This document shows, one piece after another, positions 29,610-44,892 of a stretch of DNA of 45,485 bases; the stretch's first letter is position 1, and each line of letters opens with the position of its first letter. The position numbers and the translations under genes were made by a program. The DNA comes from an uncultured Pseudomonadales bacterium (GTDB lineage: Bacteria; Patescibacteriota; Microgenomatia; UBA1400; PJMF01). The notes under the pieces are model-generated. The model was not told the origin of the DNA, did no database searches, and worked only from the letters and a program-made list of their open reading frames with translations. The stretch covers positions 26,357 to 71,841 of the forward strand of contig CAYXBZ010000001.1 of assembly GCA_964463605.1 (NCBI GenBank), in the 5' to 3' direction.

Positions 29610-29901
29610 TTTTAAGTTTTTTTTGGTTTTGCCAGACAATTGTAACACAGCGAGGCAGCGATATTTAGCGGCTGCGCTACCGATAGTTGATGAGTTTGCA
29701 TGATTTTTGATATTTTTTGCGACTATATATATGAATCAATCAAGACAGACTGTTTTTGTGGGTGGAATTGAGATTAGCACTAAACAATAACAGAGGATAC
29801 CAAAAGTAAATTTGGGTATATTCTTTTTTTGTTTTTTTTTAAAGCTATCACGTCTGTCAACTGATGGAAAAACTAACAAAAAGTATTCAAGAAGTATAAA
29901 A

Positions 29902-31134
29902 ATGCTGAGTCTTAAGCTTAAAGATACCGCGACTCCAGCTTCAAAGAGGATGAGGCAGTTGCAGCAGAAAATTTTGGGCTCTATTGGGGTCCAGGAAAGC
30001 GAGTTGAGAGAGCTATTTGCTGTTAACTCTTTTGATGCTGACCTGGTCGGAAGCAAAAACTGTGAAAACTTAATTGGCAGCGTTGAGGTGCCAGTGGGGT
30101 TGGCTGGCCCACTGAAGGCTGAGGTTGGGTTTATTGGTTTTAATTCTGAGAAAAAGGAAAAGCTAATCTTATTTTTGCCTCTGGCGACTACAGAGGGAGC
30201 CCTGGTGGCTAGTGTTAATCGGGGTTGCAAGGTCTTATCCGAGGCTGGCAGTCTTAAAATACAGGTCAAAAAGGTGGGCATGAGTCGGGCACCAGTTTTT
30301 GGGTTTGACGATATGAGTGAGGCGGTGGGGTTTGTTGAGTGGTTGGAGGAGGATGGGAGGTTTGATCAAATTAAAAAAGTTTGCGAAAAGACCAGCTCTC
30401 ATCTAAAGCTACAAAACTTTCAAACTTGGCAAGTTGGCAGATCGGTTTTTGTTCGTTTTGTTTTTGATACTGATCAAGCGATGGGTATGAACATGGTGAC
30501 GATTGCTCTGGATAACTTATGGAAAAAAATGTTGAAAAGTTACCCAGATATAAAATTAATTTCTTTGTCTGGCAATATGTGTGTTGATAAAAAGAGCTCA
30601 GCTCTTAATAGATTGTTGGGCCGGGGATATGAAGTGCAGGCAGAGGCCGTGCTGTCAGCTGAGGTTTTGGAAACCATTTTAAAAACAAACTCAGATATCT
30701 TCTTTCAAACTTATTACTGGAAAAATGTGGTGGGCTCCAATACCGCTGGATCACTAAACCTAAATATGCACGCTGCCAATATGGTAGCCGCTGTCTTTTT
30801 GGCTACCGGTCAAGACATGGCTCATGTGGTTGAGTCCTCACAAGGATCACTTTATGTTGAAAAGCAAGGAGGCGGTGATTTGTATTTGACATTAAGAATG
30901 CCTAATTTAAATCTGGGGACGGTGGGAGGAGGCACCTCTTTACCGGCTTTTTCGCAAGCTAGAAATCTAATTTTACAAGCGGCGGGTCAGTTTCAAAAGG
31001 TTGAATCAAGACATTTGGCAGCAGCTGTGGCAGGCACCGTTCTAGCTGGGGAGATCTCGGGGCTAGCTGCCCTGTCCAGCAACTCGCTGGCTGGCGCCCA
31101 TCAAACATTAGCCAGAGGAGAGGTGAAAAAATAA
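29902..31134 (+). CDS. hmgA: HMG-CoA reductase, class I (soluble archaeal-type length)
   Basis: Contains CENLIGSVEVPVGLAGPL, LPLATTEGALVASVNRGCK and DQAMGMNMVT. ATG 29902 is preferred; the 30 upstream codons of the track ORF are poly-Phe junk from T-tracts. Confidence 0.85.
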   Translation: MLSLKLKDTATPASKRMRQLQQKILGSIGVQESELRELFAVNSFDADLVGSKNCENLIGSVEVPVGLAGPLKAEVGFIGFNSEKKEKLILFLPLATTEGALVASVNRGCKVLSEAGSLKIQVKKVGMSRAPVFGFDDMSEAVGFVEWLEEDGRFDQIKKVCEKTSSHLKLQNFQTWQVGRSVFVRFVFDTDQAMGMNMVTIALDNLWKKMLKSYPDIKLISLSGNMCVDKKSSALNRLLGRGYEVQAEAVLSAEVLETILKTNSDIFFQTYYWKNVVGSNTAGSLNLNMHAANMVAAVFLATGQDMAHVVESSQGSLYVEKQGGGDLYLTLRMPNLNLGTVGGGTSLPAFSQARNLILQAAGQFQKVESRHLAAAVAGTVLAGEISGLAALSSNSLAGAHQTLARGEVKK

Positions 31135-31144
31135 ACTTCAGCTT

Positions 31145-32200
31145 ATGAAAATTACAAAACCAGTGGGAATTGTTAGTTATGGAGTCAGCCTGCCTTCTTG
31201 GGCTGTGTCGACCGAAGTAATCGAACTAGCTCAGGGGAGAGGGGAGGGGTCGGTTGCCAACTCACTGAAAATTTTTCAAAAAAGTATGCCCGATCTTGAT
31301 GAGGACACGACTACCCTAGCAACTGCGGCCGGCTTGCAGGCTTTGGAGAGGTTGGATTTATCCGTGCAAGACATTGGCGCACTTTTTATTGGCAGCGAAA
31401 GCCATCCGTATGCAGTTAAGCCCACTGGCACAATGGTGGCTGGAGCTTTAGGACTACCCTCAGACTTGGCAATGGCCGACCTGCAGTTTGCCTGTAAGGC
31501 TGGCACTCAAGGAATGCAGATCTGTGCCAGTTATGTTTTATCAAAATTTGTGAAGCTGGGAATGGCAATTGGCGCTGATACGGCTCAGGCTGCTCCAGGC
31601 GACGCTCTTGAATTTAGCGCTGCGGCTGGGGGTGCCGCTTATGTTTTTGGCTCAATCAACCTTTTGGCGAAATTGCTCGCCACCGCCTCTATCGCCACCG
31701 ACACCCCCGACTTTTGGCGCCGACCAGGGGAAAGTTATCCTAAGCACGGAGGTAGATTTACTGGTGAGCCAGCTTATTTCAAGCATATTGTTCAGGCCAG
31801 CGAAAAACTGTTGGGCGAGGTAGAGCTTCAACCCAAAGATTTTGATTACTGTGTATTTCACACCCCAAACGGCAAGTTTCCGCGACAGGTAGCCAAGAAA
31901 CTAGGCTTTACTCAAGAGCAGCTTCAACCAAGTCTGATTGTGGAGAAGATTGGTAATACCTATGCTGGAGCAATTCCATTAGCCTTGGCGGCAGTTTTGG
32001 ATCAAGCCAAGGCAAACCAAAAAATCTTTGTGACCGCTTTTGGTTCTGGTGCCGGAGCCGACAGCTTTATTTTTGAAACAACAAATCGCCTAGTTAAGCA
32101 AAAAAAACATTGGTCAAATTTTGTTTTAGACCAGATTCAATCAATGAAATTAATGAGTAGCGAACAGTTTTTAAACGCGAGAGCAGTTGCCTCTCACTAA
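31145..32200 (+). CDS. HMG-CoA synthase, archaeal type
   Basis: 351 aa. Contains VGIVSYGVSLP, DEDTTTLA, GSESHPYAVKPT and ADLQFACKAGTQG (catalytic Cys context). Confidence 0.8.
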   Translation: MKITKPVGIVSYGVSLPSWAVSTEVIELAQGRGEGSVANSLKIFQKSMPDLDEDTTTLATAAGLQALERLDLSVQDIGALFIGSESHPYAVKPTGTMVAGALGLPSDLAMADLQFACKAGTQGMQICASYVLSKFVKLGMAIGADTAQAAPGDALEFSAAAGGAAYVFGSINLLAKLLATASIATDTPDFWRRPGESYPKHGGRFTGEPAYFKHIVQASEKLLGEVELQPKDFDYCVFHTPNGKFPRQVAKKLGFTQEQLQPSLIVEKIGNTYAGAIPLALAAVLDQAKANQKIFVTAFGSGAGADSFIFETTNRLVKQKKHWSNFVLDQIQSMKLMSSEQFLNARAVASH

Positions 32201-32215
32201 AAATTAAGCTTAAAA

Positions 32216-33325
32216 ATGAAAATTACTATTGCCGGACATTACACCACCAAAATAGGGGAGCTGTGGCACTTGGGCCTGGAAGATTTAGCCAGGGAAGCTG
32301 TTGAGGGAGCTGTAGCCAATGCCAAGGTTGATCTTAAAAAGATTGACGCGGTTTTTGTGGCTAGCAAAGCCTCTGGCTCTTTCAACAATCAAAGGCACAT
32401 TAATGCTTTGGTGAGTAGTTTTTTCTCACACAACCCACCTGCAACCAGGATTGAGGGCGCTTGTGCCTCTGGCGGTTTAGCCTTAATTGCCGCTGAGCAA
32501 TCATTATTATCCAAAGAAAATCAAACGGTTTTGGTGTTGGGGGTGGAAAAGATGACCGATGTTGATGGGGTAGGGGCTACCTCTATTTTGTCTACCGCTG
32601 CCAGCACGCAGCTAGAAGGAGGCTCAACTTTTCCTGGATTGTATGCTCTGTTAGCACAAGCACATCAACTAGAGTTTAAGACTAGTAGGGAAATACTTTC
32701 GGCTGTATCGGTCAAAAATCACCGCCATGCTTTAACTAATCCATTAGCTCAGTATCACAAGGAGTTTACTCTAAAGCAGGTGAGCAACAGCGCTTTGGTG
32801 GCTGACCCACTGAGATTACTTGACTGTTCTCCAGTCTCCGATGGAGCTTCGGCAGTGATCTTAACTACGAAAAACATTAAAAACAAAGCCCAAATTATTG
32901 GAGCAGGCCACGGTCAAGACTCACTTGATTTAGCTCACAGAAAAAGCCTAACTGAGCTGGCGGCCACTAAACGGGCAGCAAAAAAAGCTTTTGCCAGCAG
33001 TGACTTAACTCCTAACAAAATCGAGGCGGCGGAAGTTCATGACTGCTTTACCATTGCTGAGATTTTGGCAATAGAGGACTTGGGCTTCTTCCCCAAAGGG
33101 GGTGGCGGCAAAGCTACTCTTGAGGGTAAAACTGAGCGAAGGAGCAAGTTGGTGGTAAATGGATCGGGGGGACTGAAGGCCTTTGGTCATCCAGTGGGAG
33201 CTACTGGAGTTAAGCAAGTCTCTTACCTGGCTGAGCAAATTGAAAAAGGCGAGTGCGGCCTAGCTTTGGCTCACAACGTGGGTGGTTCTGGAGCAACGGC
33301 GGTGGTTCATATTCTTAGCAAATAA
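32216..33325 (+). CDS. Acetyl-CoA acetyltransferase (thiolase), archaeal type
   Basis: 369 aa. Contains RIEGACASGGLAL (active-site Cys), EVHDCFTIAE and the GHPVGATG / NVGGSGAT C-terminal motifs. Confidence 0.8.
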   Translation: MKITIAGHYTTKIGELWHLGLEDLAREAVEGAVANAKVDLKKIDAVFVASKASGSFNNQRHINALVSSFFSHNPPATRIEGACASGGLALIAAEQSLLSKENQTVLVLGVEKMTDVDGVGATSILSTAASTQLEGGSTFPGLYALLAQAHQLEFKTSREILSAVSVKNHRHALTNPLAQYHKEFTLKQVSNSALVADPLRLLDCSPVSDGASAVILTTKNIKNKAQIIGAGHGQDSLDLAHRKSLTELAATKRAAKKAFASSDLTPNKIEAAEVHDCFTIAEILAIEDLGFFPKGGGGKATLEGKTERRSKLVVNGSGGLKAFGHPVGATGVKQVSYLAEQIEKGECGLALAHNVGGSGATAVVHILSK

Positions 33326-33337
33326 TTATAAATAAAC

Positions 33338-33631
33338 ATGATAAATCCAGCTAAATATTGGAGGAACGCAAAACAAACCAAGCTCTATCTGGGTCGCAAG
33401 GGGACTGTGGTGGTAGTCACATACATCAGGTCGGCTGGGATGGATCATCAGTCATCAACACCTTATTCATTTGCAGTTGTTGAGTTGGCTGATGGTGAAA
33501 AAGTAGAGTTGACGGGAGTGGGGCATGAAAAGCTGGAGGTTGGTGATAAAATTGAGTGCGTTTTGAGAAAAATTCCTCCCAATGACGGCGCAGGATTGAT
33601 CGAGTACATCATTAAAGCTAAGAAAATATGA
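33338..33631 (+). CDS. DUF35-type OB-fold protein (thiolase/HMGS partner), short form without zinc ribbon
   Basis: 97-aa ORF immediately after the thiolase. OB-fold-like pattern GTVVVVTYI...PYSFAVVELADGEKVELTGV...VGDKIECVLRK. It has only one Cys, so no CxxC...CxxC ribbon. Its stop overlaps the idi start (ATGA). Confidence 0.55.
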   Translation: MINPAKYWRNAKQTKLYLGRKGTVVVVTYIRSAGMDHQSSTPYSFAVVELADGEKVELTGVGHEKLEVGDKIECVLRKIPPNDGAGLIEYIIKAKKI

Positions 33632-34173
33632 CAGACAAAAACCTAGACCAAGTGACGCTGGTTGATGCCAATGACAACCAGATTGGCTCTCAAGATAAGA
33701 TTGAGGCTCATCGAGGCGATGGTCAGCTTCATCGGGCTATTAGCGTTTTTTTGTTTGATAATAAGGGAAAATTATTAATTCAGCAGCGCAGCAACAAAAA
33801 GATTGTGGGAGCGCTCATGTGGGCTAACACCGCTTGCGGCAATGTTAGGCCTGGAGAAAGCTATCTTGATTGTGCCAAGCGGCGCTTGAAAGAGGAGCTG
33901 GGTATCGAGGAAGTAGGGCTGAGTGAGGTGGGCAAGTTTCAGTATCAAGTGAGTTTTGACAATGGCTTTAGCGAGAATGAAATCGACACAATTTTTGTGG
34001 GGAGATTTTTGGGAGAGGCGAGGCCTAACCCAGAGGAAGTTTCAGCCATCGACTGGATTAATTTTGAAGATTTGCTGCGAGATAAAAAAAACTATGCACC
34101 GTGGGTGGAGAAAATTATGGAAAATTCTCAGATAAAAAACACTATTTATAAGCTTGCTAAGGAGAAGCGATGA
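33628..34173 (+). CDS. idi: Isopentenyl-diphosphate delta-isomerase, type 1 (Nudix fold)
   Basis: Contains HRAISVFLFDNKGKLLIQQRS, WANTACGNVRPGESYLDCAKRRLKEELGI (compare E. coli Idi WTNSVCGHPQLGES...RRCRYELGV) and ENEIDTIFVG. Confidence 0.85.
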   Translation: MTDKNLDQVTLVDANDNQIGSQDKIEAHRGDGQLHRAISVFLFDNKGKLLIQQRSNKKIVGALMWANTACGNVRPGESYLDCAKRRLKEELGIEEVGLSEVGKFQYQVSFDNGFSENEIDTIFVGRFLGEARPNPEEVSAIDWINFEDLLRDKKNYAPWVEKIMENSQIKNTIYKLAKEKR

Positions 34174-34790
34174 TTGCCAAGGAGGGGTTAGCACTAAATT
34201 CATCAAGCGCATCGGAGTTTGGAGAGAAACCAACGGCAGTAGCAGCGGTTATGCTCTATCATGATTTAACCACAAACAAATATTGGGTCTTGTTTGCCGG
34301 TCTTCTCAAGGAAGACATTGGCAAGTACGAACGTTCTCTTGATTCGAGAAACGGTGATGATGCTGATGAAATACCTCTTCATCCAGTTTTTCTAACAGAT
34401 AACCAAGCGGGATTTAACTGGGGAGGTGTGAGTGGTGGGGTGAGGGAGGGGGAGACACCAACTCAAGCTTTAAGAAGGGAAACTCAAGAAGAGACCAATC
34501 TGAGCTCATATGCAAAGTTTTTTGCTTCCAGCGCAAATCGACACATGCGACTGAAGCCGTATCTAGTGAACCAATATCGTCCGGCAAGCGGAAACAACAA
34601 GGGAGCAGAATTAGTTTATAAGGTTGATCCTCGAGCGATTATAATTGACCAGAGAATTTTTGAAGAATCTTTAAATAGGGGTTTTGAGGCTTACTGTTTG
34701 GATATGATTGACGATGATTTTTTAAAGTCGATTCGTCCAGCAGTTAGACCAATTGTTGAGCAGTTGCAACGGTTGCTACTAGTTGACTAA
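34170..34790 (+). CDS. Nudix hydrolase of unknown specificity embedded in the mevalonate operon
   Basis: 206 aa. Near-canonical Nudix box GGVREGETPTQALRRETQEETNL (GX5EX7REUXEEXGU with the last G replaced by N). Its start overlaps the idi stop (ATGA). Confidence 0.7.
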   Translation: MIAKEGLALNSSSASEFGEKPTAVAAVMLYHDLTTNKYWVLFAGLLKEDIGKYERSLDSRNGDDADEIPLHPVFLTDNQAGFNWGGVSGGVREGETPTQALRRETQEETNLSSYAKFFASSANRHMRLKPYLVNQYRPASGNNKGAELVYKVDPRAIIIDQRIFEESLNRGFEAYCLDMIDDDFLKSIRPAVRPIVEQLQRLLLVD

Positions 34791-34817
34791 GCTGTCACAA
34801 AATTAATAAGAATTTAT

Positions 34818-35615
34818 ATGAAAAAACCAATTACGCTAATAAAAATCGGCGGCTCACTCATCACCGATAAAAACAAACCATTTCAGGTTAACAATCAGGC
34901 TCTCAAGATTATTGCTCAGGAGGTCAAAAAAGCCTCCTTGACAGACAAACAGCTAATAGTTGGCCATGGTGCAGGATCTTTTGCTCACGTACCAGCAAAA
35001 AAATATCAAACACACCTTGGAATTAAAAATGAGTCTAGTTATCGAGGTATTGCTGAAGTCGCCGATGTTGCTGCTCAGCTAAATCGAATCGTAATGAGAG
35101 AATTGCTAAATCAAGGTGTAAATGCGGTGTCGGTTAGTCCTCTCAGTAGCATGGTGGCAAAAAATCATGGGTTATCCACAATTTTTACACAACCACTTGA
35201 GTTGCTTTTGGAGCACGGCCTCTTGCCGGTTGTTTATGGAGATCAGATTTTAGATGAAGAAGTAGGGTGCACCATTTTTTCTACAGAAAAAGTATTAGCT
35301 TATCTCGCTCTAGATCTCAAAGCAAAGGGCTATGTGGTTGAGCAGATTATTCAGTGCGGACAAACCAGCGGTGTCTACGATGCCGACGGCAAAACTATTT
35401 CTGAGATAAACTCTAGAAATTTTGATCAATACAAACAAACTCTTGGTGGATCAGGAGGAGTTGATGTAACTGGAGGAATGCTTCACAAGGTAGAGGAAAC
35501 TTTGGAATTGGCAAAAAAAGGAATTCCGGGATTAATCATTGATGGCATTGTTCACGGGACTCTTTCGGATGCTATTAGTGGCAAAAAAGTAGTTGGTACT
35601 AAAATAGTAGCTTAA
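34818..35615 (+). CDS. Isopentenyl phosphate kinase (amino-acid-kinase fold)
   Basis: 265 aa. Contains ITLIKIGGSLITDK, VGHGAGSFAH and DVTGGM, the typical IPK pattern, in a mevalonate operon context. Confidence 0.75.
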   Translation: MKKPITLIKIGGSLITDKNKPFQVNNQALKIIAQEVKKASLTDKQLIVGHGAGSFAHVPAKKYQTHLGIKNESSYRGIAEVADVAAQLNRIVMRELLNQGVNAVSVSPLSSMVAKNHGLSTIFTQPLELLLEHGLLPVVYGDQILDEEVGCTIFSTEKVLAYLALDLKAKGYVVEQIIQCGQTSGVYDADGKTISEINSRNFDQYKQTLGGSGGVDVTGGMLHKVEETLELAKKGIPGLIIDGIVHGTLSDAISGKKVVGTKIVA

Positions 35616-35628
35616 TTTCTATATATAT

Positions 35629-36327
35629 ATGTCAAACTCAAGCATCCCTCAACACATCGCCATTATTATGGACGGTAATCGCCGCTGGGCTCGTCAAAAC
35701 AAGCTGCAAGTTTTTAAGGGTCACGAAAAGGTGGCTCAAGAAAATATTGAGAGACTCACCGACCATTGTATTAAACTAGGCATCCCCCATCTTACACTCT
35801 GGGCGTTTAGTACTGAAAACTGGAAAAGAGACAAACTAGAGGTTGAGGCGATACTGTCATTGATGCGCAGTATGTTTGCCAAAGGCTTTGAACCAATGAT
35901 CAAAAAAAAAGTAAAGATTGAAACAATTGGAGATTTATCAAAATTTCCCGCCGACATTCAAGAAAGCATTCGAAAACTCAAGGATGGCTCGGTTAACGAC
36001 TACAAAATTGTTGTGACTTTTGCTCTTAATTATGGAGGAAGAAATGAAATCAGTCGAGCTGTAGAGAAACTGTTTCAAAGCGGATTAAACATTGGTGAGA
36101 CCCAACTTGAGTTTCAGTTAAGTGATTATCTTGACACCTCTTTTTTGCCGGATCCCGATTTAATCATTCGCACCGGAGGAGAACAGAGACTGTCGGGTTT
36201 TATGCCTTGGCAGAGCGTTTATTCTGAACTGTATTTTACTGATGTTTTGATGCCAGATTTTAACGAAAGCGAGCTTAATAAAGCTCTTGCTGAGTATCAA
36301 AGAAGAGAAAGAAGGTTTGGAGGCTAA
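35629..36327 (+). CDS. uppS: Undecaprenyl (cis-prenyl) diphosphate synthase
   Basis: Contains HIAIIMDGNRRWA, LTLWAFSTENWKR, IRTGGEQRLSGFMPWQ and YSELYF. Confidence 0.9.
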   Translation: MSNSSIPQHIAIIMDGNRRWARQNKLQVFKGHEKVAQENIERLTDHCIKLGIPHLTLWAFSTENWKRDKLEVEAILSLMRSMFAKGFEPMIKKKVKIETIGDLSKFPADIQESIRKLKDGSVNDYKIVVTFALNYGGRNEISRAVEKLFQSGLNIGETQLEFQLSDYLDTSFLPDPDLIIRTGGEQRLSGFMPWQSVYSELYFTDVLMPDFNESELNKALAEYQRRERRFGG

Positions 36328-36331
36328 CTAG

Positions 36332-36787
36332 CTAGGGCGATGGTGTTATCCCAAGATTGCCCCAATCATCAGGATTTGAAATTCCTGTATCACTTGAAGG
36401 AATAAAAAACTGAGTAATCACATTTATTCCGGTAAACTCAGCAATAGTGTTAATGATGAGAAATGATAGTAGTGCTAACACTAACCCTGAAAAAGCAAAG
36501 GTAATAGTTTTTTTTGAACTCTCCAAAGCTTGTGAATTTCCTCCAGATAAAAGCCATTTTATTGATCCAACAACCAGCATCACAAAACCAGCCAATCCAA
36601 TAAAGGTAAAGCTAACCGATAGAACATTTGCCACCAGACACATTGTCCCTTGAATAGTGGCCACACCATTAACCACACAGGAGCTATTGATGTCAGCCCA
36701 AGGCTGGGTTTGAGCATGGGCGGTGGGTGAAAAAAACAGAAAAATTGATATTAGTGAAGTAAAAAGCAGGGTTTTTTTAGCAAGCAT
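36332..36787 (-). CDS. VirB2/TrbC-like T4SS pilin paralog P1
   Basis: 151 aa. Signal peptide ends AHA|QT. Two hydrophobic helices flank the loop IKWLLSGGNSQALESSKKTI. Two Cys lie in the N-terminal external part. Confidence 0.65.
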   Translation of the reverse strand: MLAKKTLLFTSLISIFLFFSPTAHAQTQPWADINSSCVVNGVATIQGTMCLVANVLSVSFTFIGLAGFVMLVVGSIKWLLSGGNSQALESSKKTITFAFSGLVLALLSFLIINTIAEFTGINVITQFFIPSSDTGISNPDDWGNLGITPSP

Positions 36788-36823
36788 AGTAGCTGTGTTT
36801 TTTTAATGATTGTCGCTTGCACT

Positions 36824-36832
36824 ATTGTATCA
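36824..36832 (-). promoter_or_regulatory. Extended -10 promoter (TGATACAAT on minus strand) for P1
   Basis: The plus strand reads attgtatca. It lies ~37 nt upstream of the P1 ATG and downstream of the P2 terminator. Confidence 0.4.
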
Positions 36833-36871
36833 AAACTCTTGAAAATGGTCTGTAGGCAATAAATAAGAACT

Positions 36872-36898
36872 AAAAACCCCCGCGATAAGCGGGGGTTT
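36872..36898 (-). terminator. Strong intrinsic terminator after pilin P2
   Basis: The minus strand reads CCCCCGC-TTATC-GCGGGGG followed by TTTTT. The stem is 7 bp, all G/C. It lies 27 nt after the P2 stop. Confidence 0.85.
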
Positions 36899-36924
36899 GA
36901 GTGCAATTTCTTATTTAGAATTAG

Positions 36925-37326
36925 TTAGCGATTAATTGGTCTAATGCCAGTATTAAACACTTCCTGAATTCCTCCAGAAAATCCCAATAGGCTTAAGGCA
37001 AGTTGGAGAAGGGCGTATGATGCAGCCAAAACAATTAGACCCACAATAGCAGCGGTGATCTTATTTCTTGCTTTTTCAGTTTGGCCCTTGTCACCACCAG
37101 AGGTAATCCACTCAATTCCGCCCAAAATAAGGTACATAAACACCAAAATGGCAGCGACTAACATCACTAAGTTTAAAATACTGCTTAGAAGTGTGCCAAT
37201 GCTTGTAGCATAACCTCTATCTGGAATATCAACATTTCCAAGTTGGGCTAGTGCTGGGGTTGCGGCCAAAACGAAGCTTCCCACAGAAGAGCTAATACCC
37301 AATGTAATTTTCTGAATTTTATTCAT
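36925..37326 (-). CDS. VirB2/TrbC-like T4SS pilin paralog P2 (candidate major pilin)
   Basis: 133 aa. Signal peptide ends ALA|QL. The loop is IEWITSGGDKGQTEKARNKI between two hydrophobic helices. It has its own consensus promoter, an AAGGAG Shine-Dalgarno and a terminator. Confidence 0.7.
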   Translation of the reverse strand: MNKIQKITLGISSSVGSFVLAATPALAQLGNVDIPDRGYATSIGTLLSSILNLVMLVAAILVFMYLILGGIEWITSGGDKGQTEKARNKITAAIVGLIVLAASYALLQLALSLLGFSGGIQEVFNTGIRPINR

Positions 37327-37380
37327 AATTCTCCTTTAGTTGTTAGGTTGTATTGTTTCTAGTTTATATCAAGTGAACGT

Positions 37381-37410
37381 ATTATAGCAAGTATCTGCAA
37401 AAAAAGTCAA
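37381..37410 (-). promoter_or_regulatory. Near-consensus sigma70 promoter for pilin P2
   Basis: The minus strand reads TTGACT (37410-37405), an 18-nt spacer, then TATAAT (37386-37381). AAGGAG (37336-37331) sits 4 nt before the ATG. Confidence 0.65.
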
Positions 37411-37435
37411 AATTGAACTCTCTTGAAATGATTTT

Positions 37436-37987
37436 TTAGTAGCAAGTAATAACTCCACAGGTTCCACCTATTGGGCCTGTCCAGGACCCACTTACGCATC
37501 GGTAGCAGGGAGAGTCATTGGTGTTATACAGTCTTCCAACAGACCCTTCGGGTGCGTATTTTCCATTCCAGCACTCACATGAACCCACCGCAGGAGGAGT
37601 TCCCCCTCCGCCATCACCACTGGTTCTTCCCGAGATAAACTCAACCGGATGACCTAAGAAAGTGTTGATTGCCATAAAGATCGCTACCGACGCTGATAAA
37701 ATTAAAATTCCTACTACTGACTGTGTTAGGCGATTCTTTGCTTTGTCAATTTTTCCACTATCGCCACCAGCAGAAATCCACTGAATTCCCGCATATAGCA
37801 GATTAAACAAGAGGATGACGGCGGCAACGACAAATGCCATGCGCAATAAACCGCTAATAAAATTAGCTACGACAATGCCTCCATCATCGGTGGTGTTAAT
37901 TTGATCGGCGTAGGGAATATCTTGCTCTTTGGCCTCATTGATTATGTTGAAGTTGATGTCGGCGATAAGGGAAGAAATATTTTTCAT
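37436..37987 (-). CDS. VirB2/TrbC-like pilin paralog P3 with Cys-rich C-terminal extension
   Basis: 183 aa. No classical signal peptide. The loop is IQWISAGGDSGKIDKAKNRL. After helix 2 come a Gly-rich linker (GDGGGGTPP) and a 6-Cys tail: GSCECWNGKYAPEGSVGRLYNTNDSPCYRCVSGSWTGPIGGTCGVITCY. Confidence 0.65.
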   Translation of the reverse strand: MKNISSLIADINFNIINEAKEQDIPYADQINTTDDGGIVVANFISGLLRMAFVVAAVILLFNLLYAGIQWISAGGDSGKIDKAKNRLTQSVVGILILSASVAIFMAINTFLGHPVEFISGRTSGDGGGGTPPAVGSCECWNGKYAPEGSVGRLYNTNDSPCYRCVSGSWTGPIGGTCGVITCY

Positions 37988-38052
37988 AGCTGATTGATGT
38001 TGGATTTTTTTTGTGGTGAGTTAAACAGTTGAAAATGTGCTTGTATTTGTGT

Positions 38053-38478
38053 TTATGTCGGTATGTGGGGCGGTCTTCCCTCTGGAATACCTGGATTATT
38101 TGTTTGTTGTTCTGTGGCCGAGGGGATAGTGATCTGTAACAAGTTAAAGTCATCTCCAAACAAAAGCGTGCTAACAAAGGCGATTATTGCAAACGATCCC
38201 ACTAGTAGGATTAGTCCTATTGTTGCCTGAGTAAAGCGAGTTTTAGCTTTTTCCACCCCCTTGCTGTCTCCGCCACTAGATAGCCACTCGAACGCAGCCA
38301 TGACATAGTAAGCCAGCACAACAACAGCACCCAAAGTAATAGCCACTCTCCACATGCGAATTGCATAGTGAAAAAATAACGAACCATCTCTGGCTGCATC
38401 AGGATCACTGCCCAAATTATCAATTACGGGATTGGTGAGCGAGCCTTGGGCTAGAAGTGATAAATTCATAAATGACAT
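38053..38478 (-). CDS. VirB2/TrbC-like pilin paralog P4
   Basis: 141 aa. The loop is FEWLSSGGDSKGVEKAKTRF between two hydrophobic helices. The C-terminal tail is Pro-rich. Confidence 0.65.
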   Translation of the reverse strand: MSFMNLSLLAQGSLTNPVIDNLGSDPDAARDGSLFFHYAIRMWRVAITLGAVVVLAYYVMAAFEWLSSGGDSKGVEKAKTRFTQATIGLILLVGSFAIIAFVSTLLFGDDFNLLQITIPSATEQQTNNPGIPEGRPPHIPT

Positions 38479-38509
38479 ATAAAAGAATGAGTGAGTGCTA
38501 TTAAATTTT

Positions 38510-38911
38510 TTACTGTTTAGGCACCACTTTCATTAAGGTTTCTTCTAAGTTTATAAGGTCGATACCAATGATGGTGCCCACAATTCCGATGAGGGCATAG
38601 CTCATTACCATCACAATTAATCCAAGTACTCCGTGAAACATCTTTTCTCTTGCTTTTTCAACTTTTCCAGAATCACCTCCGGCAGTAATCCAACTAAATG
38701 CTGCCAAAAATGTAAAAACAATAAAAAACAGTCCACCCATAACGGTGATAATTCCAATTAAGTTGGAGAGGAAAGTTACTAATGTAATTAGAACATTGCC
38801 GCCGCCACTTCCTAACTCTTTGGGCGTGTAAATAGTGTCGGCAGGAGGCTCAAACCCATCTCCAAACTGAGCTTGCACTTGATCAATGTTTAAATGTTTT
38901 AGAATGTTCAT
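38510..38911 (-). CDS. VirB2/TrbC-like pilin paralog P5
   Basis: 133 aa. The loop is FSWITAGGDSGKVEKAREKM between two hydrophobic helices. The N-terminal leader is ~35 aa and hydrophilic. Confidence 0.65.
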   Translation of the reverse strand: MNILKHLNIDQVQAQFGDGFEPPADTIYTPKELGSGGGNVLITLVTFLSNLIGIITVMGGLFFIVFTFLAAFSWITAGGDSGKVEKAREKMFHGVLGLIVMVMSYALIGIVGTIIGIDLINLEETLMKVVPKQ

Positions 38912-38930
38912 TGTTTAACTCAAAAATTGA

Positions 38931-39389
38931 CTAACCTCCAATAGAAGTAAGCTTTGGGTTGATGATAAAGGTGGCGTCTCCAAAGATCAACAAACCTACA
39001 ATGGCAGCAATGGTATAAGAAAAGGCAACGATTGCAAGACCTATTACGCTGTTGAGCATCTTGGTAGACACCTTCTCTCCAGCGGAAGAATCTCCTGAAG
39101 AAGTGAGATAAATCCATCCTGCAAAAATAAAATTTAGCATAGTCCAGATTCCAGCAACAATTGTGATTAGGCGAATCATGTTAGAGAGAAATAAAATTAT
39201 CCCAATGTCGTTATCTCCAACTTGGGCTTGCCACTTATCTACTCCTGGTGGTGGTTCAATCGTTCCCACTACCGACGGTGTGTCCGCCCAAACTGACTGA
39301 GGAAGAGCGAACCAAATAACTGTAGAAAATAAAGAAAAAACAATCTTTGTGAGCTGAGTTGTAAGTTGTTTGATGTTCGTGATTGTCAT
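38931..39389 (-). CDS. VirB2/TrbC-like pilin paralog P6
   Basis: 152 aa. Signal peptide ends VWA|DT. The loop WIYLTSSGDSSAGEKVSTKM is a degenerate form of the motif. A TATAAT at 39425-39420 lies upstream. Confidence 0.6.
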   Translation of the reverse strand: MTITNIKQLTTQLTKIVFSLFSTVIWFALPQSVWADTPSVVGTIEPPPGVDKWQAQVGDNDIGIILFLSNMIRLITIVAGIWTMLNFIFAGWIYLTSSGDSSAGEKVSTKMLNSVIGLAIVAFSYTIAAIVGLLIFGDATFIINPKLTSIGG

Positions 39390-39497
39390 GAAGTCTTTTT
39401 CTAAGAACGAATTTATTCTATTATATTTTGTCGAGTTTAGCCAATGTTGATGTCGGCAAGCTAATTAATGAATAGTTCGGCTAAATGTGCGACAGTT

Positions 39498-39866
39498 TTA
39501 TCCCCCAAGTGGTCCGCCGATAGGAATGCTCTCCATTTGGGTAACTAGCTTAATAATCTGCACAATCCAGTAAGCCGAAAACATCACTAGAAAGCCAATT
39601 ACAGCTCCAGTTGCTAAATTTTTAGCATCCTCTTTGCCTTTGTCGGAGTCTTTGAGATAGCTGAAGCCAGCGCCAATTACTAAAAAAAATATTACGATTC
39701 CAGCTAGTACAAACAGATTGCTGACAACTAAGTTAACAACAACCCCAAAGCTACCATAAGTATCAGCTACAGTTGGTTCATTTTCTAATTTAGTTAGTTT
39801 TAAATACTCGCTAAGATTTATCTGGGCTGAGGGGACTGATAGATGACCCAATAGATTGGTAAACAT
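39498..39866 (-). CDS. VirB2/TrbC-like pilin paralog P7 (most divergent)
   Basis: 122 aa with the same two-helix hairpin. The loop is FSYLKDSDKGKEDAKNLA. A TATAAT at 39895-39890 lies upstream. Confidence 0.5.
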   Translation of the reverse strand: MFTNLLGHLSVPSAQINLSEYLKLTKLENEPTVADTYGSFGVVVNLVVSNLFVLAGIVIFFLVIGAGFSYLKDSDKGKEDAKNLATGAVIGFLVMFSAYWIVQIIKLVTQMESIPIGGPLGG

Positions 39867-40068: not shown

Positions 40069-40725
40069 TTATTCCAAAACATCGCTCTTCATTTTTTCAG
40101 CTTCTGTTTGAAAGTAATTAGACATATTTTTCTTGTCAAAACTTCCGTTAATAATTGGATCATCTACATGCGTATCAACTTCAAATAACCTACTAGCAAG
40201 TTGAAGTGGATCTATGTGCCAATCAAATTTGATTTTTGCTTTCATTCGCAGATCTTTAATAGCAAAGTTATATTTTTGAATAATCGAGTAAAGATCAAAA
40301 TAATCTCGACCTCTTGGCTTTTGAACAATGGTGAGCAGTTTGTTGGTGGCGATGTCAACGACACTATCAACCAACAGACCATCTTTTTGTTTTGGTTGCT
40401 CCACATGCGCAAATGGATAGTAGGTGAACTCAAGTTTGAGGATGTAGTTATTTTCAAATCTCAAAAAATATAGGTTTCGATTAAAACTAGTTTGATAATC
40501 AAATGATTCAAAATCTAGTTTTTTTTGAAGTTTTTTGAGCAAAACCAAGATGCTTTGCGGATCAAATTCTTTTTGATTGAAGAAATCTAGATCTTCTGAA
40601 TATCGATGCTGCAAGTAGTAGTGTGACAAAGCAGTTCCGCCAGAAAAGTAAAACTCTTTAGCAAGATCTGTAGTTGCAATTAGTGAAAGGGCTTTTTTTT
40701 GTTGTTTTGTTAAGATTGGCCCCAT
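40069..40725 (-). CDS. Nucleotidyltransferase AbiEii/AbiGii-family toxin-like protein
   Basis: 218 aa. Contains FYFSGGTALSHYYLQHRYSEDLDFF, the hallmark N-terminal motif of the AbiEii (DUF1814) family. Confidence 0.7.
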   Translation of the reverse strand: MGPILTKQQKKALSLIATTDLAKEFYFSGGTALSHYYLQHRYSEDLDFFNQKEFDPQSILVLLKKLQKKLDFESFDYQTSFNRNLYFLRFENNYILKLEFTYYPFAHVEQPKQKDGLLVDSVVDIATNKLLTIVQKPRGRDYFDLYSIIQKYNFAIKDLRMKAKIKFDWHIDPLQLASRLFEVDTHVDDPIINGSFDKKNMSNYFQTEAEKMKSDVLE

Positions 40726-41075: not shown

Positions 41076-41226
41076 ATTTCAAATAAGTATCCAATTCTCT
41101 CAAAAAAAACAAGATTTTTCCAGCGCAAAACACCCAATAAGCGTGGCAAGCATTCAAATTATATTAAGGCTCATCAGCGCTTATTTTATTTTTGTATTAA
41201 AGATCGTGAGTGGCGGTTCTTCTTCA

Positions 41227-41235
41227 TGGTAGAAT
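41227..41235 (+). promoter_or_regulatory. Extended -10 (TGGTAGAAT) 7 nt upstream of the sigma-factor ATG, suggesting a leaderless transcript
   Basis: Read directly: tggtagaat, then caagctg, then ATG (41243). No Shine-Dalgarno. Confidence 0.4.
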
Positions 41236-41242
41236 CAAGCTG

Positions 41243-41827
41243 ATGTCTCAAAAAAAACCAGTAATCAACTCAGCAGTGTTGGCTAATGAAAACAAGTTGG
41301 TGAAGCAATTAAAGCAAGCTGATCCTCAGGCGGTAAAAAAGTGGTTTTTACACTATCATCAATCACTACTTCAGCTAGCAAAACAAAAAATAGCTAACAC
41401 CAAAGATGCTGAAGATGTGGTTCAAGAAACAATGATAAACTGCTTGCGACAGATTCAGCTTTTTCGTCAAGATTCTAGCTTAAGAACTTGGATGATGACC
41501 ATTCTTCGTCATGAGATTGCAGATTACTATCGAAAAAAGTATGCAAAGAAAGCATTAAACACGGTACCGCTGGGTCATCACCTTCTAACTCAGCCCATTC
41601 AAGGTAGCGACCTAGTTGAAGAGCGCGTAATTCAAACTGTACAAAATACGTTAAAAAAAATGTCTAGCTATCGTAAAAAAATCTTGATGATGAAGTATGT
41701 TGACGGATTAAAGGTACGAGAAATTGCTAAAAAGTTGGGAAAAACATTCAAGTCAGTTGAAGCAGAGCTGTGGCGATCAAGAGAATCCTTTAAGAAATTT
41801 TATTTGGAGGACGAACTAAATCAATAA
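41243..41827 (+). CDS. RNA polymerase sigma-70 family factor, ECF-like
   Basis: Region 2 is DAEDVVQETMINCLRQIQLFRQDSSLRTWMMTILRHEIADYYRKK. Region 4 is LMMKYVDGLKVREIAKKLGKTFKSVEAELWRSRESF. ATG 41243 is preferred over the upstream alternative start at 41210. Confidence 0.8.
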   Translation: MSQKKPVINSAVLANENKLVKQLKQADPQAVKKWFLHYHQSLLQLAKQKIANTKDAEDVVQETMINCLRQIQLFRQDSSLRTWMMTILRHEIADYYRKKYAKKALNTVPLGHHLLTQPIQGSDLVEERVIQTVQNTLKKMSSYRKKILMMKYVDGLKVREIAKKLGKTFKSVEAELWRSRESFKKFYLEDELNQ

Positions 41828-41834
41828 TAAATTA

Positions 41835-42038
41835 ATGATAAATAAATCACTCTCAACTCAGGCGCAAGTTATTGCCAAGCTGCAAAAAGAAGCTAGTCGG
41901 CAGGCGAAGATTGAGCAGCGACATCTTCTACCAAAAGAAGTAAGTTCGGTGGCTGGGTTGATTAATCGCTATCCATGGCAAACATTAGCCATCAGCTCAT
42001 TGTTGACCACCATTATTCTTAAGACAATCATTAACTAG
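41835..42038 (+). CDS. Small single-pass membrane protein (possible anti-sigma factor)
   Basis: 67-aa ORF starting 7 nt after the sigma gene. The N-terminus is hydrophilic and the C-terminal helix is WQTLAISSLLTTIILKTII. The function is assigned from position only. Confidence 0.4.
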   Translation: MINKSLSTQAQVIAKLQKEASRQAKIEQRHLLPKEVSSVAGLINRYPWQTLAISSLLTTIILKTIIN

Positions 42039-42133
42039 ATGGCGACCCAACAAACAGGTTGCAGACAATTAATAACAAAAAAAACAAACCCAACCAAAGA
42101 TCAGCAAAATAATAATCAAGCAACAACACAACA

Positions 42134-42454
42134 ATGATTAACTGGATCATCTCGTTTTTTTACGCTGTGGGCAGATTTGCCTTGGGGCTGTTGCTTCATC
42201 CTTATCAAACCATGCAGTTACTGGTGAGGCAAAGAATCTTTGTGTGGGTGGTGCTAACTCCAGCCATATTTTGGATAATATTACTGATAAGCAATCAGTA
42301 TCTGATAGCTCCAACCCTGTCTTATTTGAAAATCTCTTGTCCCGAAATGCGTCAAGTGACATCCTTTTTTAGAATGTGGATCAGCATTTTTACGCTTTAT
42401 TGGCAGTTAATGCTATTTTATTTGTTGTTGAGGTTTTGGTCAGCACAAAATTAA
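42134..42454 (+). CDS. Hypothetical polytopic small membrane protein
   Basis: 106-aa ORF with three hydrophobic segments and no recognisable family. Confidence 0.45.
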   Translation: MINWIISFFYAVGRFALGLLLHPYQTMQLLVRQRIFVWVVLTPAIFWIILLISNQYLIAPTLSYLKISCPEMRQVTSFFRMWISIFTLYWQLMLFYLLLRFWSAQN

Positions 42455-44567: not shown

Positions 44568-44568
44568 G

Positions 44569-44892
44569 TTAGTTCTTAATTTTATCTTTTTTTCCAGATT
44601 TTTGCTCTTGCTCAGATTGACTACTTTTTTCAAGTCTTCGTTGTACTTTTGCGAGCTCCATAGTGACTATCACCGCTAGGGTGGTAACTACCAATGAGTA
44701 CACGAGAAGAGAAATAATTCCTCCTCCCTCTCCCAAAATTGGAGTTAGGTACTGTGATACAGCAGTGCGAATCAACTCATTCCAGGCTAAAGCAACTACC
44801 AAGCCAAAACCACTGGTTGATAGAGTAATAATGTTTTTGATGATCGCCAAGGGCAATTCATCTAGGTGTTGGGGTGTTTGTATTTTTGACAT
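44569..44892 (-). CDS. DUF5654-like small membrane protein
   Basis: 107 aa. Contains GFGLVVALAWNELIRTAVSQYL plus a second helix (ISLLVYSLVVTTLAVIVTM), a pattern I associate with DUF5654. Confidence 0.55.
   Translation of the reverse strand: MSKIQTPQHLDELPLAIIKNIITLSTSGFGLVVALAWNELIRTAVSQYLTPILGEGGGIISLLVYSLVVTTLAVIVTMELAKVQRRLEKSSQSEQEQKSGKKDKIKN

Follow-up and report, generated by a model that had tools for sequence, protein, structure and literature searches.

A mevalonate operon without the known enzyme families between mevalonate and isopentenyl phosphate in a Microgenomates genome

The window analyzed here, a stretch of 45,485 nucleotides from a tiny bacterium of symbiotic type in the Microgenomates group of CPR/Patescibacteria, contains eight intact open reading frames on the + strand, tightly packed between positions 29812 and 36327, with intergenic gaps of 10, 15, 12, 27 and 13 nt and two 4-nt overlaps. 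Family profile scores bear out all eight gene identities proposed in the sequence-only reading of this DNA, and the ORF coordinates agree with the packing it described (gaps of 10-27 nt or short overlaps). The first gene codes for class I HMG-CoA reductase (HMGR, 29812..31134; PF00368, 354.8 bits, inside the range of 292-372 bits seen in relatives with complete pathways); the ORF starts with TTG at 29812, an in-frame ATG is found at 29902, and residue 52 is the first one covered by the Pfam match. It is followed by archaeal-type HMG-CoA synthase (HMGS, 31145..32200; NF003274, 436 bits vs cut-off 244, and TIGR00748, 401 vs 353) and archaeal-type acetoacetyl-CoA thiolase (AACT, 32216..33325), which passes Pfam Thiolase_N and Thiolase_C_1, scores slightly below the cut-off of NF004720 (393 bits vs 420), and reaches 367 bits with NF053570, where the cut-off is 600.

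The fourth gene (33338..33631) encodes a DUF35-like OB-fold protein of 97 aa, matched by Pfam OB_ChsH2_C with 23.8 bits (E 4.4e-5), which falls short of the 27.1-bit cut-off. Its alignment with DUF35 chain 6esq_E (E 9.3e-5) is limited to residues 44-124 of 130, i.e., the OB-fold part; ~40 residues at the N-terminus of the archaeal counterpart are missing from it. The gene has an identical position in all related operons, and the adjacency of thiolase, HMGS and DUF35 genes resembles the archaeal channelling complex of these three proteins (PDB structures 6esq and 6et9). The protein is presumed to be the scaffold of a putative thiolase/HMGS complex.

One of the 4-nt overlaps joins the DUF35 gene to that of type 1 isopentenyl-diphosphate isomerase (IDI, 33628..34173; NF002995, 156 vs 127, and TIGR02150, 114 vs 106), whose 'ENE' motif and 'CG'-motif Cys line up with the IDI structure 3hyq. 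Next come a Nudix protein of 206 aa (34170..34790), with a PF00293 match of 32 bits confined to the Nudix box (residues 81-112), and isopentenyl phosphate kinase (IPK, 34818..35615; NF040647, 195.8 vs 120), whose top PDB matches are IPKs, with the GSFAH His and the DVTGGM motif aligned. The last gene is undecaprenyl-diphosphate synthase UppS, a cis-prenyltransferase (35629..36327; TIGR00055, 228 vs 110; PF01255, 249.7 bits).

Much of this make-up has been described before. Archaeal thiolase, HMGS, DUF35, class I HMGR, IDI-1, IPK and cis-prenyltransferase were reported in CPR/Microgenomates (Hoshino and Gaucher, 2018, PMC6107057), and our locus is like the published clusters in gene set, in synteny of IPK with IDI and with cis-prenyltransferase, and in taxonomic group. 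The hybrid archaeal/bacterial composition claimed in the sequence-only reading is thus correct and not new. In the portions of PMC6107057 considered here, the later-step enzymes of CPR, MVK, PMVK and DPMD, have a distribution exactly equal to that of the early-step enzymes, and the IPK, syntenic with IDI, is termed 'enigmatic', its presence being seemingly irrespective of other genes.

Relatives' operons give a large part of the answer to the question of origin raised in the earlier reading. In L046, L064 and L082 (= G125), the gene order is HMGR-HMGS-AACT-DUF35-MVK-MVD-IPK, and L055 matches it from AACT onward; in these sister operons, MVK and an MVD-like decarboxylase occupy the slot held here by IDI and Nudix. 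The IPK is 66-70% identical to relatives' IPKs, some of which are encoded directly 3' of MVK/MVD genes, and in a tree of IPKs the sequences of G000 (the host genome), G002, G044 and G051 form a clade that is sister to one containing L046 and L043. Since the relatives have the same operon with MVK and MVD-like decarboxylase before IPK, the locus is best read as a derivative of its own lineage's MVK-PMD-IPK operon rather than as a new arrival from archaea; the direction of change, loss of the MVK/MVD genes, would follow from the same comparison. Haloarchaea and Chloroflexi have the alternative mevalonate pathway with phosphomevalonate decarboxylase and IPK (Dellas et al., 2013, PMC3857490, and PMC6107057, in the parts considered here). 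There, too, IPK is the last kinase, and since the sister operons have the full MVK, MVD-like and IPK set, the lineage evidently used this route; in contrast to it, the host genome lacks MVK and the decarboxylase, and the thiolase, HMGS and DUF35 genes share the operon.

Absence of mevalonate kinase and of any decarboxylase or dehydratase step from the window, noted in the sequence-only reading, is confirmed, and it extends to the whole host assembly (G000; 929 kb, or 0.93 Mb, in 94 contigs, completeness 95.16%), where neither an MVK nor a decarboxylase gene was found. Pfam models of GHMP kinases (PF00288, PF08544), AcnX (PF04412), UbiD (PF01977), DXR (PF02670) and IspH (PF02401) had zero matches in this genome, with control genomes positive in each search, and the DXS search produced a sole match, a 282-aa split-transketolase-like ORF. 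Tblastn searches with relatives' GHMP genes and IspG against all contigs, small ones included, gave nothing. With HMMs derived from the MVK/PMVK-like and MVD proteins of CPR, searched against six-frame ORFs under --max, the lowest E-value was 0.12, whilst in the control all relatives' GHMPs, including IspE, were retrieved by the MVK/PMVK-like HMM. DPANN-derived HMMs for both AcnX subunits (large and small), UbiD, UbiX and IDI-2 had no match either (controls: trans-IPPS, 5e-77; UppS, 1e-102). The Pfam, tblastn and lineage-specific HMM searches, in which the controls worked, concur: the assembly lacks the known bridging families. The genome-wide check that had been proposed, covering MVK, PMVK, MDD/PMD, AcnX, UbiD, UbiX and the MEP markers (DXR, IspH, IspG, IspE, DXS), therefore found none of them. 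Canonical MVK/PMK/MDD genes elsewhere in the assembly, which would have turned this into a classical pathway with an accessory IPK, were not found, and the interpretation given in the earlier reading is supported.

Demand for the product is evident from the same genome, which encodes a trans-prenyltransferase (trans-IPPS, contig C13), BacA/UppP, an MraY-type protein, MurG, Mur ligases and MiaA/MiaB.

Among 140 family genomes, seven have HMGR and IPK with no detectable GHMP gene (G000, G002, G009, G044, G051, G053, G147). HMGR with at least three GHMP genes and no IPK occurs in 35 of 140, IPK with neither HMGR nor a detectable GHMP in 60 of 140, and IPK together with at least three GHMP genes (the three-gene set) in 0/74. 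Early genes without any GHMP gene, and the failure of IPK to coincide with the GHMP trio, are what sets the family apart from the published CPR pattern, as far as the portions of PMC6107057 considered here describe it. A wider profile that includes divergent MVK-like forms found nothing in G002, G009, G044, G051 and G147, i.e., all other gap genomes except G053.

The missing genes might simply lie in the ~5% of the genome that escaped assembly or binning, and the organism would then run an ordinary MVK-PMD-IPK route. The fragmentation into 94 contigs and the estimated completeness leave some room for this, as do 46 ORFs, located at the ends of contigs or on the smallest ones, that fell outside our Pfam scan, and MVK and MVD are present in close relatives. 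However, the relatives' MVK/MVD slot, from DUF35 to IPK, is contiguous sequence here and is filled by IDI and Nudix; the tblastn and HMM searches took in every contig; and the pattern is common to six further independent assemblies (completeness: G009, 98%; G044, 95%; G051, 92%; G053, 90%; G002, 72%; G147, 65%). We consider an assembly gap very improbable.

Eroded pathways are common in the clade, which makes erosion under host dependence plausible: G156-G159 have a degenerate MVK-like gene, with MVD and HMGR missing; MVK-like proteins of HMGR-less genomes reach just 36-70 bits where the MVK models require 163 and 403; and in L039, L086 and L091 DUF35 remnants are found beside IDI, with thiolase and HMGS missing. 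Dependence on a host for precursors or carrier lipid could have made the mevalonate genes neutral, with the middle genes gone and the early genes to follow. Against this, all eight ORFs are intact and score at full strength against their families, and the gapped layout is kept across three genera in the clade of the host genome and recurs in G009 and G147, which belong to two other IPK lineages. Among G000, G002, G044 and G051, dN is 0.24-0.47 for HMGR, HMGS and AACT with dS saturated, and dN/dS is 0.09-0.22 in the only pairs with computable dS. The early-pathway genes are under purifying selection and are not decaying, and the complete MEP pathway alongside decaying genes, raised in the earlier reading, is not what the genome contains; decay is a very unlikely account. 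The best reading is that the gap is real and under selection, and not an artefact of assembly or decay.

The archaeal trans-anhydromevalonate phosphate pathway employs an AcnX-type dehydratase, a UbiD/UbiX decarboxylase and IPK. The locus resembles this archaeal mevalonate pathway (PMC10040528, in the part considered here) in IPK dependence and in the archaeal-type thiolase, HMGS and DUF35, and differs from it in that AcnX, UbiD, UbiX and MVK were not found in the host genome and the isomerase is of type 1 instead of type 2. DPANN loci retrieved with the IPK profile have the archaeal-type gene set (AcnX/UbiD pathway, with thiolase, HMGS and DUF35) adjoining IPK; CPR and DPANN IPKs are 42-48% identical, and three CPR IPKs are nested in the DPANN clade.

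In plants, a cytosolic IPK/Nudix cycle between isopentenyl phosphate (IP) and IPP was reportedly described by Henry et al. in 2015 and 2018; plants have complete de novo pathways, and their IPK and Nudix genes are unlinked. Here the Nudix gene adjoins IPK, a hint that the two enzymes act in opposite directions (IPP to IP, and IP to IPP), but orthology of this Nudix to the plant enzymes is undetectable, and the gene is missing from some sister operons. The Nudix protein is fast-evolving with a near-canonical Nudix box, found no homologue besides itself when searched against a database of 5.8 billion protein sequences, and its neighbours in Atlas are generic Nudix/MutT only. Weak-Nudix proteins fill the slot between IDI and IPK in many relatives; the gap operons of G002, G044 and G051 have no Nudix gene, so the protein does not track the gap. 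We infer that it may be a prenyl/isopentenyl diphosphate phosphohydrolase, which would probably return IPP/DMAPP to the monophosphate form.

Of the 566 mid-size ORFs in the host genome, 520 were scanned with Pfam, and none stood out as a convincing bridging candidate. The small-molecule kinases in this set were all of the housekeeping kind: NDK, CMK, TMK, ADK, PyrH, pyruvate kinase, PRPP synthetase, an APH/ThrB2-like kinase, an NnrD-like protein and two members of the PfkB family. The NnrD-like protein was rejected by its distribution (135/140 genomes), and so was the APH-like kinase, which is found in 7/140 genomes, including an MEP-type congener, and is missing from gap genomes G044, G051 and G009. 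No report of a non-GHMP mevalonate kinase was found in the literature searched.

The late half alone, IDI-(Nudix)-IPK-UppS, is what the 60 HMGR-less relatives retain, which shows that IP can be supplied independently of the operon's early half; salvage and hidden enzymes would account for this equally well. The two halves might then be uncoupled, with no conversion of mevalonate to IP inside the cell. A partner or the environment would feed the late half with IP/DMAP itself, or with isoprenol/prenol phosphorylated by a promiscuous kinase, in the host as in the 60 relatives, and mevalonate would have some other use, such as cross-feeding a partner or serving as a redox/acetyl-CoA sink. The synthetic isopentenol utilisation pathway, consisting of a promiscuous alcohol kinase, IPK and IDI, has the same late module leading from external C5 to IPP/DMAPP, and the same logic as the 60 relatives; it differs in being engineered, no natural first kinase was found in our analysis, and the host's APH-type kinase does not co-vary with IPK. 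Some HMGR-independent source of IP must exist in the family, every kind of partial pathway is present in the clade, the proteome scan was empty of candidates, and in HMGR-less G016 IPK and UppS are fused into one 504-aa protein; the DPANN-like IPKs of CPR would be compatible with life beside archaea, where IP is an intermediate. Uncoupling, however, leaves unexplained the purifying selection on HMGR, HMGS and thiolase in four gap genomes and the persistence of both halves, across at least three IPK lineages, within a single packed operon whose genes partly overlap, and it requires a hypothetical uptake of phosphorylated C5 or a hypothetical natural isoprenol kinase. We regard it as possible and rather unlikely.

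Our own proposal, made tentatively and at somewhat less than even confidence, is a mevalonate operon in two working halves that has lost its middle genes, in which mevalonate would reach IP through enzyme families not yet linked to this conversion. Thiolase, DUF35, HMGS and class I HMGR would convert acetyl-CoA to mevalonate; IPK would turn IP into IPP, and IDI-1 would supply DMAPP. The 4-nt overlap of the DUF35 and IDI genes speaks for coupling between the two halves. UppS and the trans-prenyltransferase would then make undecaprenyl diphosphate, carrier lipid for cell wall and glycan, with MiaA as a second consumer of DMAPP. The MVK and phosphomevalonate decarboxylase GHMP genes of the lineage's 'haloarchaeal/Chloroflexi-type' operon would have been lost genome-wide, and mevalonate, still the precursor, would become IP through one or two enzymes that we infer to exist and whose families are new to such chemistry. 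Relatives keeping just IDI-Nudix-IPK-UppS would have the same enzymes, acting on imported mevalonate. Relative to PMC6107057, in the parts considered here, the gap itself is what is new, and in the best reading either unrecognised enzymes or a partner organism would bridge it.

Positions 29812-36327 of the window hold eight ORFs that run in the same direction, with gaps of 10-27 nt or overlaps of 4 nt between them, and that encode, in this order, HMG-CoA reductase (HMGR), HMG-CoA synthase (HMGS), thiolase (AACT), a DUF35-like protein, IPP isomerase (IDI), a Nudix protein, isopentenyl phosphate kinase (IPK) and a cis-prenyltransferase (UppS). The tightly packed operon proposed by the sequence-only reading is borne out by the ORF positions and by Pfam and NCBIfam assignments. 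The archaeal-type thiolase and HMGS and the class I HMGR form one cluster, whose order is repeated in relatives, and HMGS scores above cut-off with two equivalog models; IDI is syntenic with IPK, and UppS belongs to the same cluster. Two equivalogs above cut-off assign IDI to type 1, and its Cys and ENE motif, in which we take the Cys and the Glu to be the catalytic residues, align with a solved IDI; the position after the Cys is Asn here and His in the solved enzyme. IPK reaches 195.8 with equivalog NF040647 (cut-off 120), and the His of GSFAH and the DVTGGM motif, presumably catalytic, align with solved IPKs. We refer below to the first four genes, which make mevalonate, as the early half, and to the remainder as the late half.

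The 97-aa OB-fold protein matches the DUF35 chain 6esq_E of the solved archaeal thiolase/HMGS/DUF35 complex (E 9.3e-5), but aligns only to residues 44-124 of this 130-aa chain, i.e., to its OB-fold part, and its OB-fold domain has a Pfam score below the cut-off. The N-terminal part of the archaeal protein, which we take to be a zinc ribbon, is missing in this alignment. The 206-aa Nudix protein has a Pfam match at residues 81-112. The Nudix box consensus is GX5EX7REUXEEXGU, and the box read from the translation departs from it only by an Asn in place of the last Gly. A search of a 5.8-billion-sequence protein database gave no relative of this protein, its neighbours in the ESM Atlas are generic Nudix proteins only, and an iterative HMM search had by round 3 strayed into IDI and further Nudix proteins, leaving no clean family that could be defined.

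The operon is flanked by a class I aminoacyl-tRNA synthetase gene and by arrays of small T4SS-pilin-like genes. The arrays (window 36332-39866, minus strand; weak to moderate matches to PF18895) lie at the IPK-UppS end, and similar ones are seen at loci L037-L050, L062, L074, L083, L090, L105, L107 and L111 from relatives; one sequence cluster of such genes has 175 members in 26 of 80 related loci, always beside isoprenoid genes.

The studied genome, G000, whose contig C1 includes the window, is a CPR/Patescibacteria genome of the Microgenomates group, and the closest public IPK loci come from the Microgenomates group, Candidatus Pacebacteria, Beckwithbacteria and Gottesmanbacteria. Its assembly (929 kb in 94 contigs, estimated completeness 95.16%) was searched for enzymes leading from mevalonate to isopentenyl phosphate (IP). 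Profiles of GHMP_kinases_N (E <= 0.01), AcnX, UbiD, DXR and IspH had no match anywhere in it and were positive throughout in control genomes; GHMP_kinases_C, also positive in the controls, had a sole match of 11.5 bits, at chance level, within a 761-aa ORF. Since PF00288 (GHMP_kinases_N) misses very divergent MVK-like proteins of this clade, lineage-specific HMMs were built from the MVK/PMVK-like and MVD proteins of relatives and run with filters off against all six-frame ORFs of at least 50 aa. The best E-values in G000 were 0.12 to 0.95, the latter for the MVD model, and the MVK/PMVK-like model recovered all GHMP proteins of the relatives, IspE included. There was likewise no match in tblastn searches with the relatives' MVK/PMVK-like and MVD proteins and with the IspG of a congener, nor with HMMs made from DPANN archaeal AcnX (large and small subunits), UbiD, UbiX and IDI-2, for which trans-prenyltransferase (5e-77) and UppS (1e-102) served as controls.

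None of the routes considered here is recognizable in full. The MVK-PMD-IPK route (alternative mevalonate pathway I) is represented by IPK, whereas its GHMP-type MVK and MVD-like decarboxylase were not found; the archaeal trans-anhydromevalonate phosphate route lacks both AcnX subunits and UbiD with UbiX; and the MEP pathway lacks all four markers covered here, namely DXR and IspH (by profiles), IspE (by the GHMP searches) and IspG (by tblastn), with IspD and IspF outside this set. The only DXS-family match, weak and partial, is a 282-aa ORF that adjoins the C-terminal half of transketolase and is a split transketolase. The sequence-only reading had reported the bridging steps as missing from the window, and their absence extends to the 95%-complete assembly; the same searches turned up neither a complete MEP pathway, which that reading had named jointly with gene decay as evidence against its proposal, nor canonical MVK/PMK/MDD genes elsewhere in G000, which it had named as the alternative. 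Consumers of IPP and DMAPP are present: a trans-prenyltransferase (contig C13), BacA/UppP, MraY-type and MurG transferases, Mur ligases, and MiaA with MiaB.

The same gap is found in other members of the family. We scored 140 family genomes, G000 included, for GHMP_kinases_N at E <= 1e-3 and for the IPK equivalog and HMG-CoA_red at E <= 1e-10. HMGR with at least three GHMP genes and no IPK, the classical route, is seen in 35 genomes; HMGR and IPK occur with two GHMP genes in one genome, G125, and with none in seven (G000, G002, G009, G044, G051, G053 and G147). The late half alone, IPK with neither HMGR nor GHMP, characterizes 60 genomes (including G090, which is flagged unpublished and on which no claim rests), and six more with IPK and no HMGR have one or two GHMP genes. 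The genomes that remain, all devoid of IPK, comprise 21 with at least one GHMP gene and no HMGR, two with HMGR and one or no GHMP gene, and eight with none of the three. The lack of GHMP genes was judged by PF00288 in all genomes other than G000, G002, G009, G044, G051 and G147; in the last five, a profile that includes divergent MVK-like forms also had no match, in a search that did not extend to G053 and had no positive control of its own. None of the 74 IPK-bearing genomes has three or more GHMP genes, and IPK and the MVK/PMVK/DPMD trio are mutually exclusive in the 140 genomes. That the bridging genes simply fell into assembly gaps is very improbable in our estimation; completeness of the seven gap genomes is 95% for G000, 72% for G002, 98% for G009, 95% for G044, 92% for G051, 90% for G053 and 65% for G147.

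Among the 21 genomes with GHMP genes only, at least the congeners G001 and G003 are MEP users, their single IspE-like GHMP gene adjoining IspG. In G003, which belongs to the same genus as G000, this pair is at L002:1255-3235, and HMGR, HMGS and IPK are absent, so that the isoprenoid precursor pathway differs within one genus, MEP in one species and the gapped mevalonate type in another.

Compared with G002, G044 and G051, the early-pathway proteins of G000 show 56-68% identity, and compared with complete-pathway genomes 51-62%. In Nei-Gojobori comparisons among these four gap genomes, dN is 0.24-0.47 for HMGR, HMGS and AACT and 0.15-0.18 for IPK; dS is saturated (at least 1.8, or not computable), and the dN/dS of early genes is 0.09-0.22 where it could be computed. 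HMGR profile scores of gap genomes (308-357 bits) fall inside the range of complete-pathway genomes (292-372 bits). The early genes are not decaying and are under purifying selection. Decay of the pathway, which the sequence-only reading had itself considered, would make the operon a stage of ongoing loss, and with these dN/dS values and normal HMGR scores we regard it as very improbable.

Gene order in relatives points to the genes that were lost. Classical relatives, such as G013, have HMGR-HMGS-AACT-DUF35 followed by three GHMP genes. In G125 (locus L082) and at loci L046 and L064 the order is HMGR-HMGS-AACT-DUF35-MVK-MVD-like-IPK, and locus L055, on a short contig, has AACT-DUF35-MVK-MVD-like-IPK; this layout is the MVK-PMD-IPK route. 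The decarboxylases of L034 (also from G125) and L043 reach 262 and 229 bits with the diphosphomevalonate decarboxylase equivalog, above its cut-off, and match the phosphomevalonate decarboxylase model below its cut-off. The operon of G009 is laid out like that of G000, HMGR-HMGS-AACT-DUF35-IDI-Nudix-IPK-UppS, and those of G002, G044 and G051 differ by the lack of the Nudix gene. Many relatives have IDI-(weak Nudix)-IPK-UppS alone, three such late-half-only loci (L039, L086 and L091) with a leftover DUF35 gene, and in G016, which has no HMGR, IPK and UppS are fused into a protein of 504 aa (L026:6882-8396, minus strand; AA_kinase at 4-241, Prenyltransf at 285-502). A second, IDI-like Nudix gene, coding for 217 aa, is found directly upstream of HMGR in G009 (L022:5492-6145) and G147 (L033:9739-10392).

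In a quick maximum-likelihood tree of 86 IPK sequences with SH-aLRT supports, G000, G002, G044 and G051 form one clade, the sister of which (support 97) includes L046, with its complete MVK-MVD-IPK operon, and L043, with IDI-MVD-IPK-MVK-like. From this placement, IPK of G000 is an orthologue of IPKs acting downstream of MVK and MVD. The IPKs of G009 and G147 belong to other lineages, together with G125, and the gapped layout is found in at least three IPK lineages. Elsewhere in the tree, the IPKs of L068, L073 and L098, all classed as CPR, two of them titled Saccharibacteria and the third just 'bacterium', nest within the DPANN archaeal clade, and CPR and DPANN IPKs in general are 42-48% identical; this hints at transfer between these two groups of small-celled symbionts.

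The 60 IPK-only genomes and the IPK-UppS fusion show that the late half does not need the early half to function, and hence that an HMGR-independent supply of IP must exist in this family. Two models fit these observations. We tentatively prefer, at somewhat short of an even chance, the explanation that mevalonate is turned into IP also by enzymes yet unrecognised. Mevalonate would then be a common currency, produced where HMGR is encoded and imported elsewhere, and would be converted into IP either via MVK and MVD or via those enzymes. All four observed combinations are explained in this way, and so is the purifying selection on the early genes of gap genomes, at the cost of postulating new enzymes, for which no candidate has been found. 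Salvage, with IP or a C5 alcohol taken from a partner and the upstream genes dispensable, postulates no new enzymes and would account for many eroded states, but it gives no reason why the early half is under selection and operon-linked in the seven gap genomes, and we consider it rather unlikely. The remaining odds go to explanations other than unrecognised enzymes, salvage, assembly gaps and decay.

The unrecognised-enzyme explanation can be extended to about half of the family (the 67 among 140 genomes in which IPK is present and GHMP genes are undetected), which would make IP from mevalonate by enzyme families never linked to this task; in this broad form it is doubtful. It would amount to a further form of the mevalonate pathway, using a mevalonate kinase from outside the GHMP family, a decarboxylating step independent of ATP, or both. 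The G000 operon and its six look-alikes would then be self-sufficient, with the 60 IPK-only genomes as mevalonate auxotrophs.

Candidates for such enzymes were sought in a Pfam scan of 520 (10 + 510) of the 566 G000 ORFs of 150-520 aa, with thresholds of E <= 1e-10 or 1e-12; the remaining 46 ORFs lie at contig ends or on contigs C65-C94, and about one-third of the scanned ORFs had no match at these thresholds. Small-molecule kinases were NDK, the CMP, dTMP, AMP and UMP kinases, pyruvate kinase (two ORFs) and PRPP synthetase, joined by two PfkB proteins, an NnrD-like ATP-dependent dehydratase and an APH-fold protein distantly similar to the alternative homoserine kinase. Decarboxylase-like proteins were OMP decarboxylase, a LOG-like protein, a pyruvoyl histidine-decarboxylase-like protein and an MmdA-like carboxyltransferase.

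The NnrD-like dehydratase (window 43611-44633, minus strand) was attractive for its chemistry, phosphorylation of a hydroxyl followed by elimination; it is found, however, in 135 of 140 genomes of all pathway types, and was set aside as housekeeping. The APH/ThrB2-like kinase (C26:2309-3346), which in threonine synthesis is the counterpart of a GHMP kinase, was likewise rejected, as it does not track the gap: just 7 of 140 genomes have it, MEP-type G003 included, and gap genomes G044, G051 and G009 do not. One PfkB kinase, encoded beside RpiB and Rpe, resembles a ribokinase. The gene of the other overlaps a prokaryotic viperin-like radical-SAM gene (L123:1285-3017, on contig C3; NF038283, 166 bits against a cut-off of 180), and from this adjacency the two are probably a defence pair, possibly an antiviral, nucleotide-modifying one. 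The 206-aa Nudix protein finds no support as a general answer to the missing decarboxylase: its hydrolase box is intact, its neighbours are generic, and it is absent from three gap operons. It is kept as a sub-lead only, because fast-evolving Nudix/IDI-fold proteins occupy the MVD slot in some relatives: the position between IDI and IPK is taken by MVD in L043 and by a weak-Nudix gene in its close relatives L040 and L042. Neither HMGR nor a match to MVD-like_N is present in the genomes of L040, L042, L047 and L058, which keep an MVK-like gene scoring 36-70 bits (MVK-model cut-offs 163 and 403).

Small conserved neighbours of IPK in relatives form clusters c5, c53, c31, c44, c23 and c22, and c44, c23 and c22 have no homologue in G000 at a convincing score. 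Homologues of c53 and c5 are two small ORFs (about 41835-42454) that follow an ECF-type sigma factor within window 41210-42454. In many relatives the trio stands directly upstream of IDI-Nudix-IPK-UppS, and it may regulate this module.

The 0.93-Mb G000 genome also contains a CBASS-like pair (DncV-like nucleotidyltransferase and SAVED-domain protein), a ThsB-type TIR protein and several AbiEii-type toxin genes, located at L191:262-2875 (contig C59), L170:31-531 and window 40069-40725. In this genome of little central metabolism, a divergent citrate-synthase-like gene, the MmdA-like carboxyltransferase (611 bits) and biotin-protein ligase are close together at L157:343-5709 (contig C25). The pyruvoyl-type histidine-decarboxylase-like gene (L167:6306-7190, contig C35) matches PF02329 with E 7e-57, and the equivalog with 178 bits, below its cut-off of 346.

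The hybrid archaeal/bacterial composition claimed by the sequence-only reading is real, but it is not new, having been described for CPR already (Hoshino & Gaucher 2018, PMC6107057). The cluster described there shares with ours the thiolase/HMGS/HMGR grouping and the synteny of IDI-1, IPK and cis-prenyltransferase, and differs in that MVK, PMVK and DPMD are in the same genome, whereas none was found in the 95%-complete G000 assembly. The paper gives early- and later-step enzymes exactly the same distribution in CPR, the presence of IPK seeming irrespective of other genes and its function being stated as unknown; passages of PMC11052028 (2024) mention CPR for the eukaryote-type pathway only. 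Full-text literature searches gave nothing else on CPR IPK. As far as searched, the GHMP-less form, its recurrence, the selection and the exclusion between IPK and the GHMP trio are new, with the reservation that the supplements of PMC6107057 may list such genomes.

Archaea, too, were for over a decade known to have IPK without phosphomevalonate decarboxylase, until the AcnX and UbiD steps were found. The hole in G000 is similar but larger, as MVK is missing too; the search space is unusually small, thanks to one co-directional operon, about 950 genes, selected early genes and six further assemblies. The exclusion between IPK and MVK/PMVK/DPMD in 140 genomes corrects the published picture of CPR. 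If the enzymes are hidden, they would represent new biochemistry for a central pathway, of use in pathway engineering; if a partner bridges the two halves, this would be a concrete, testable case of an essential pathway split in CPR symbiosis, and IPK could mark the kind of host.
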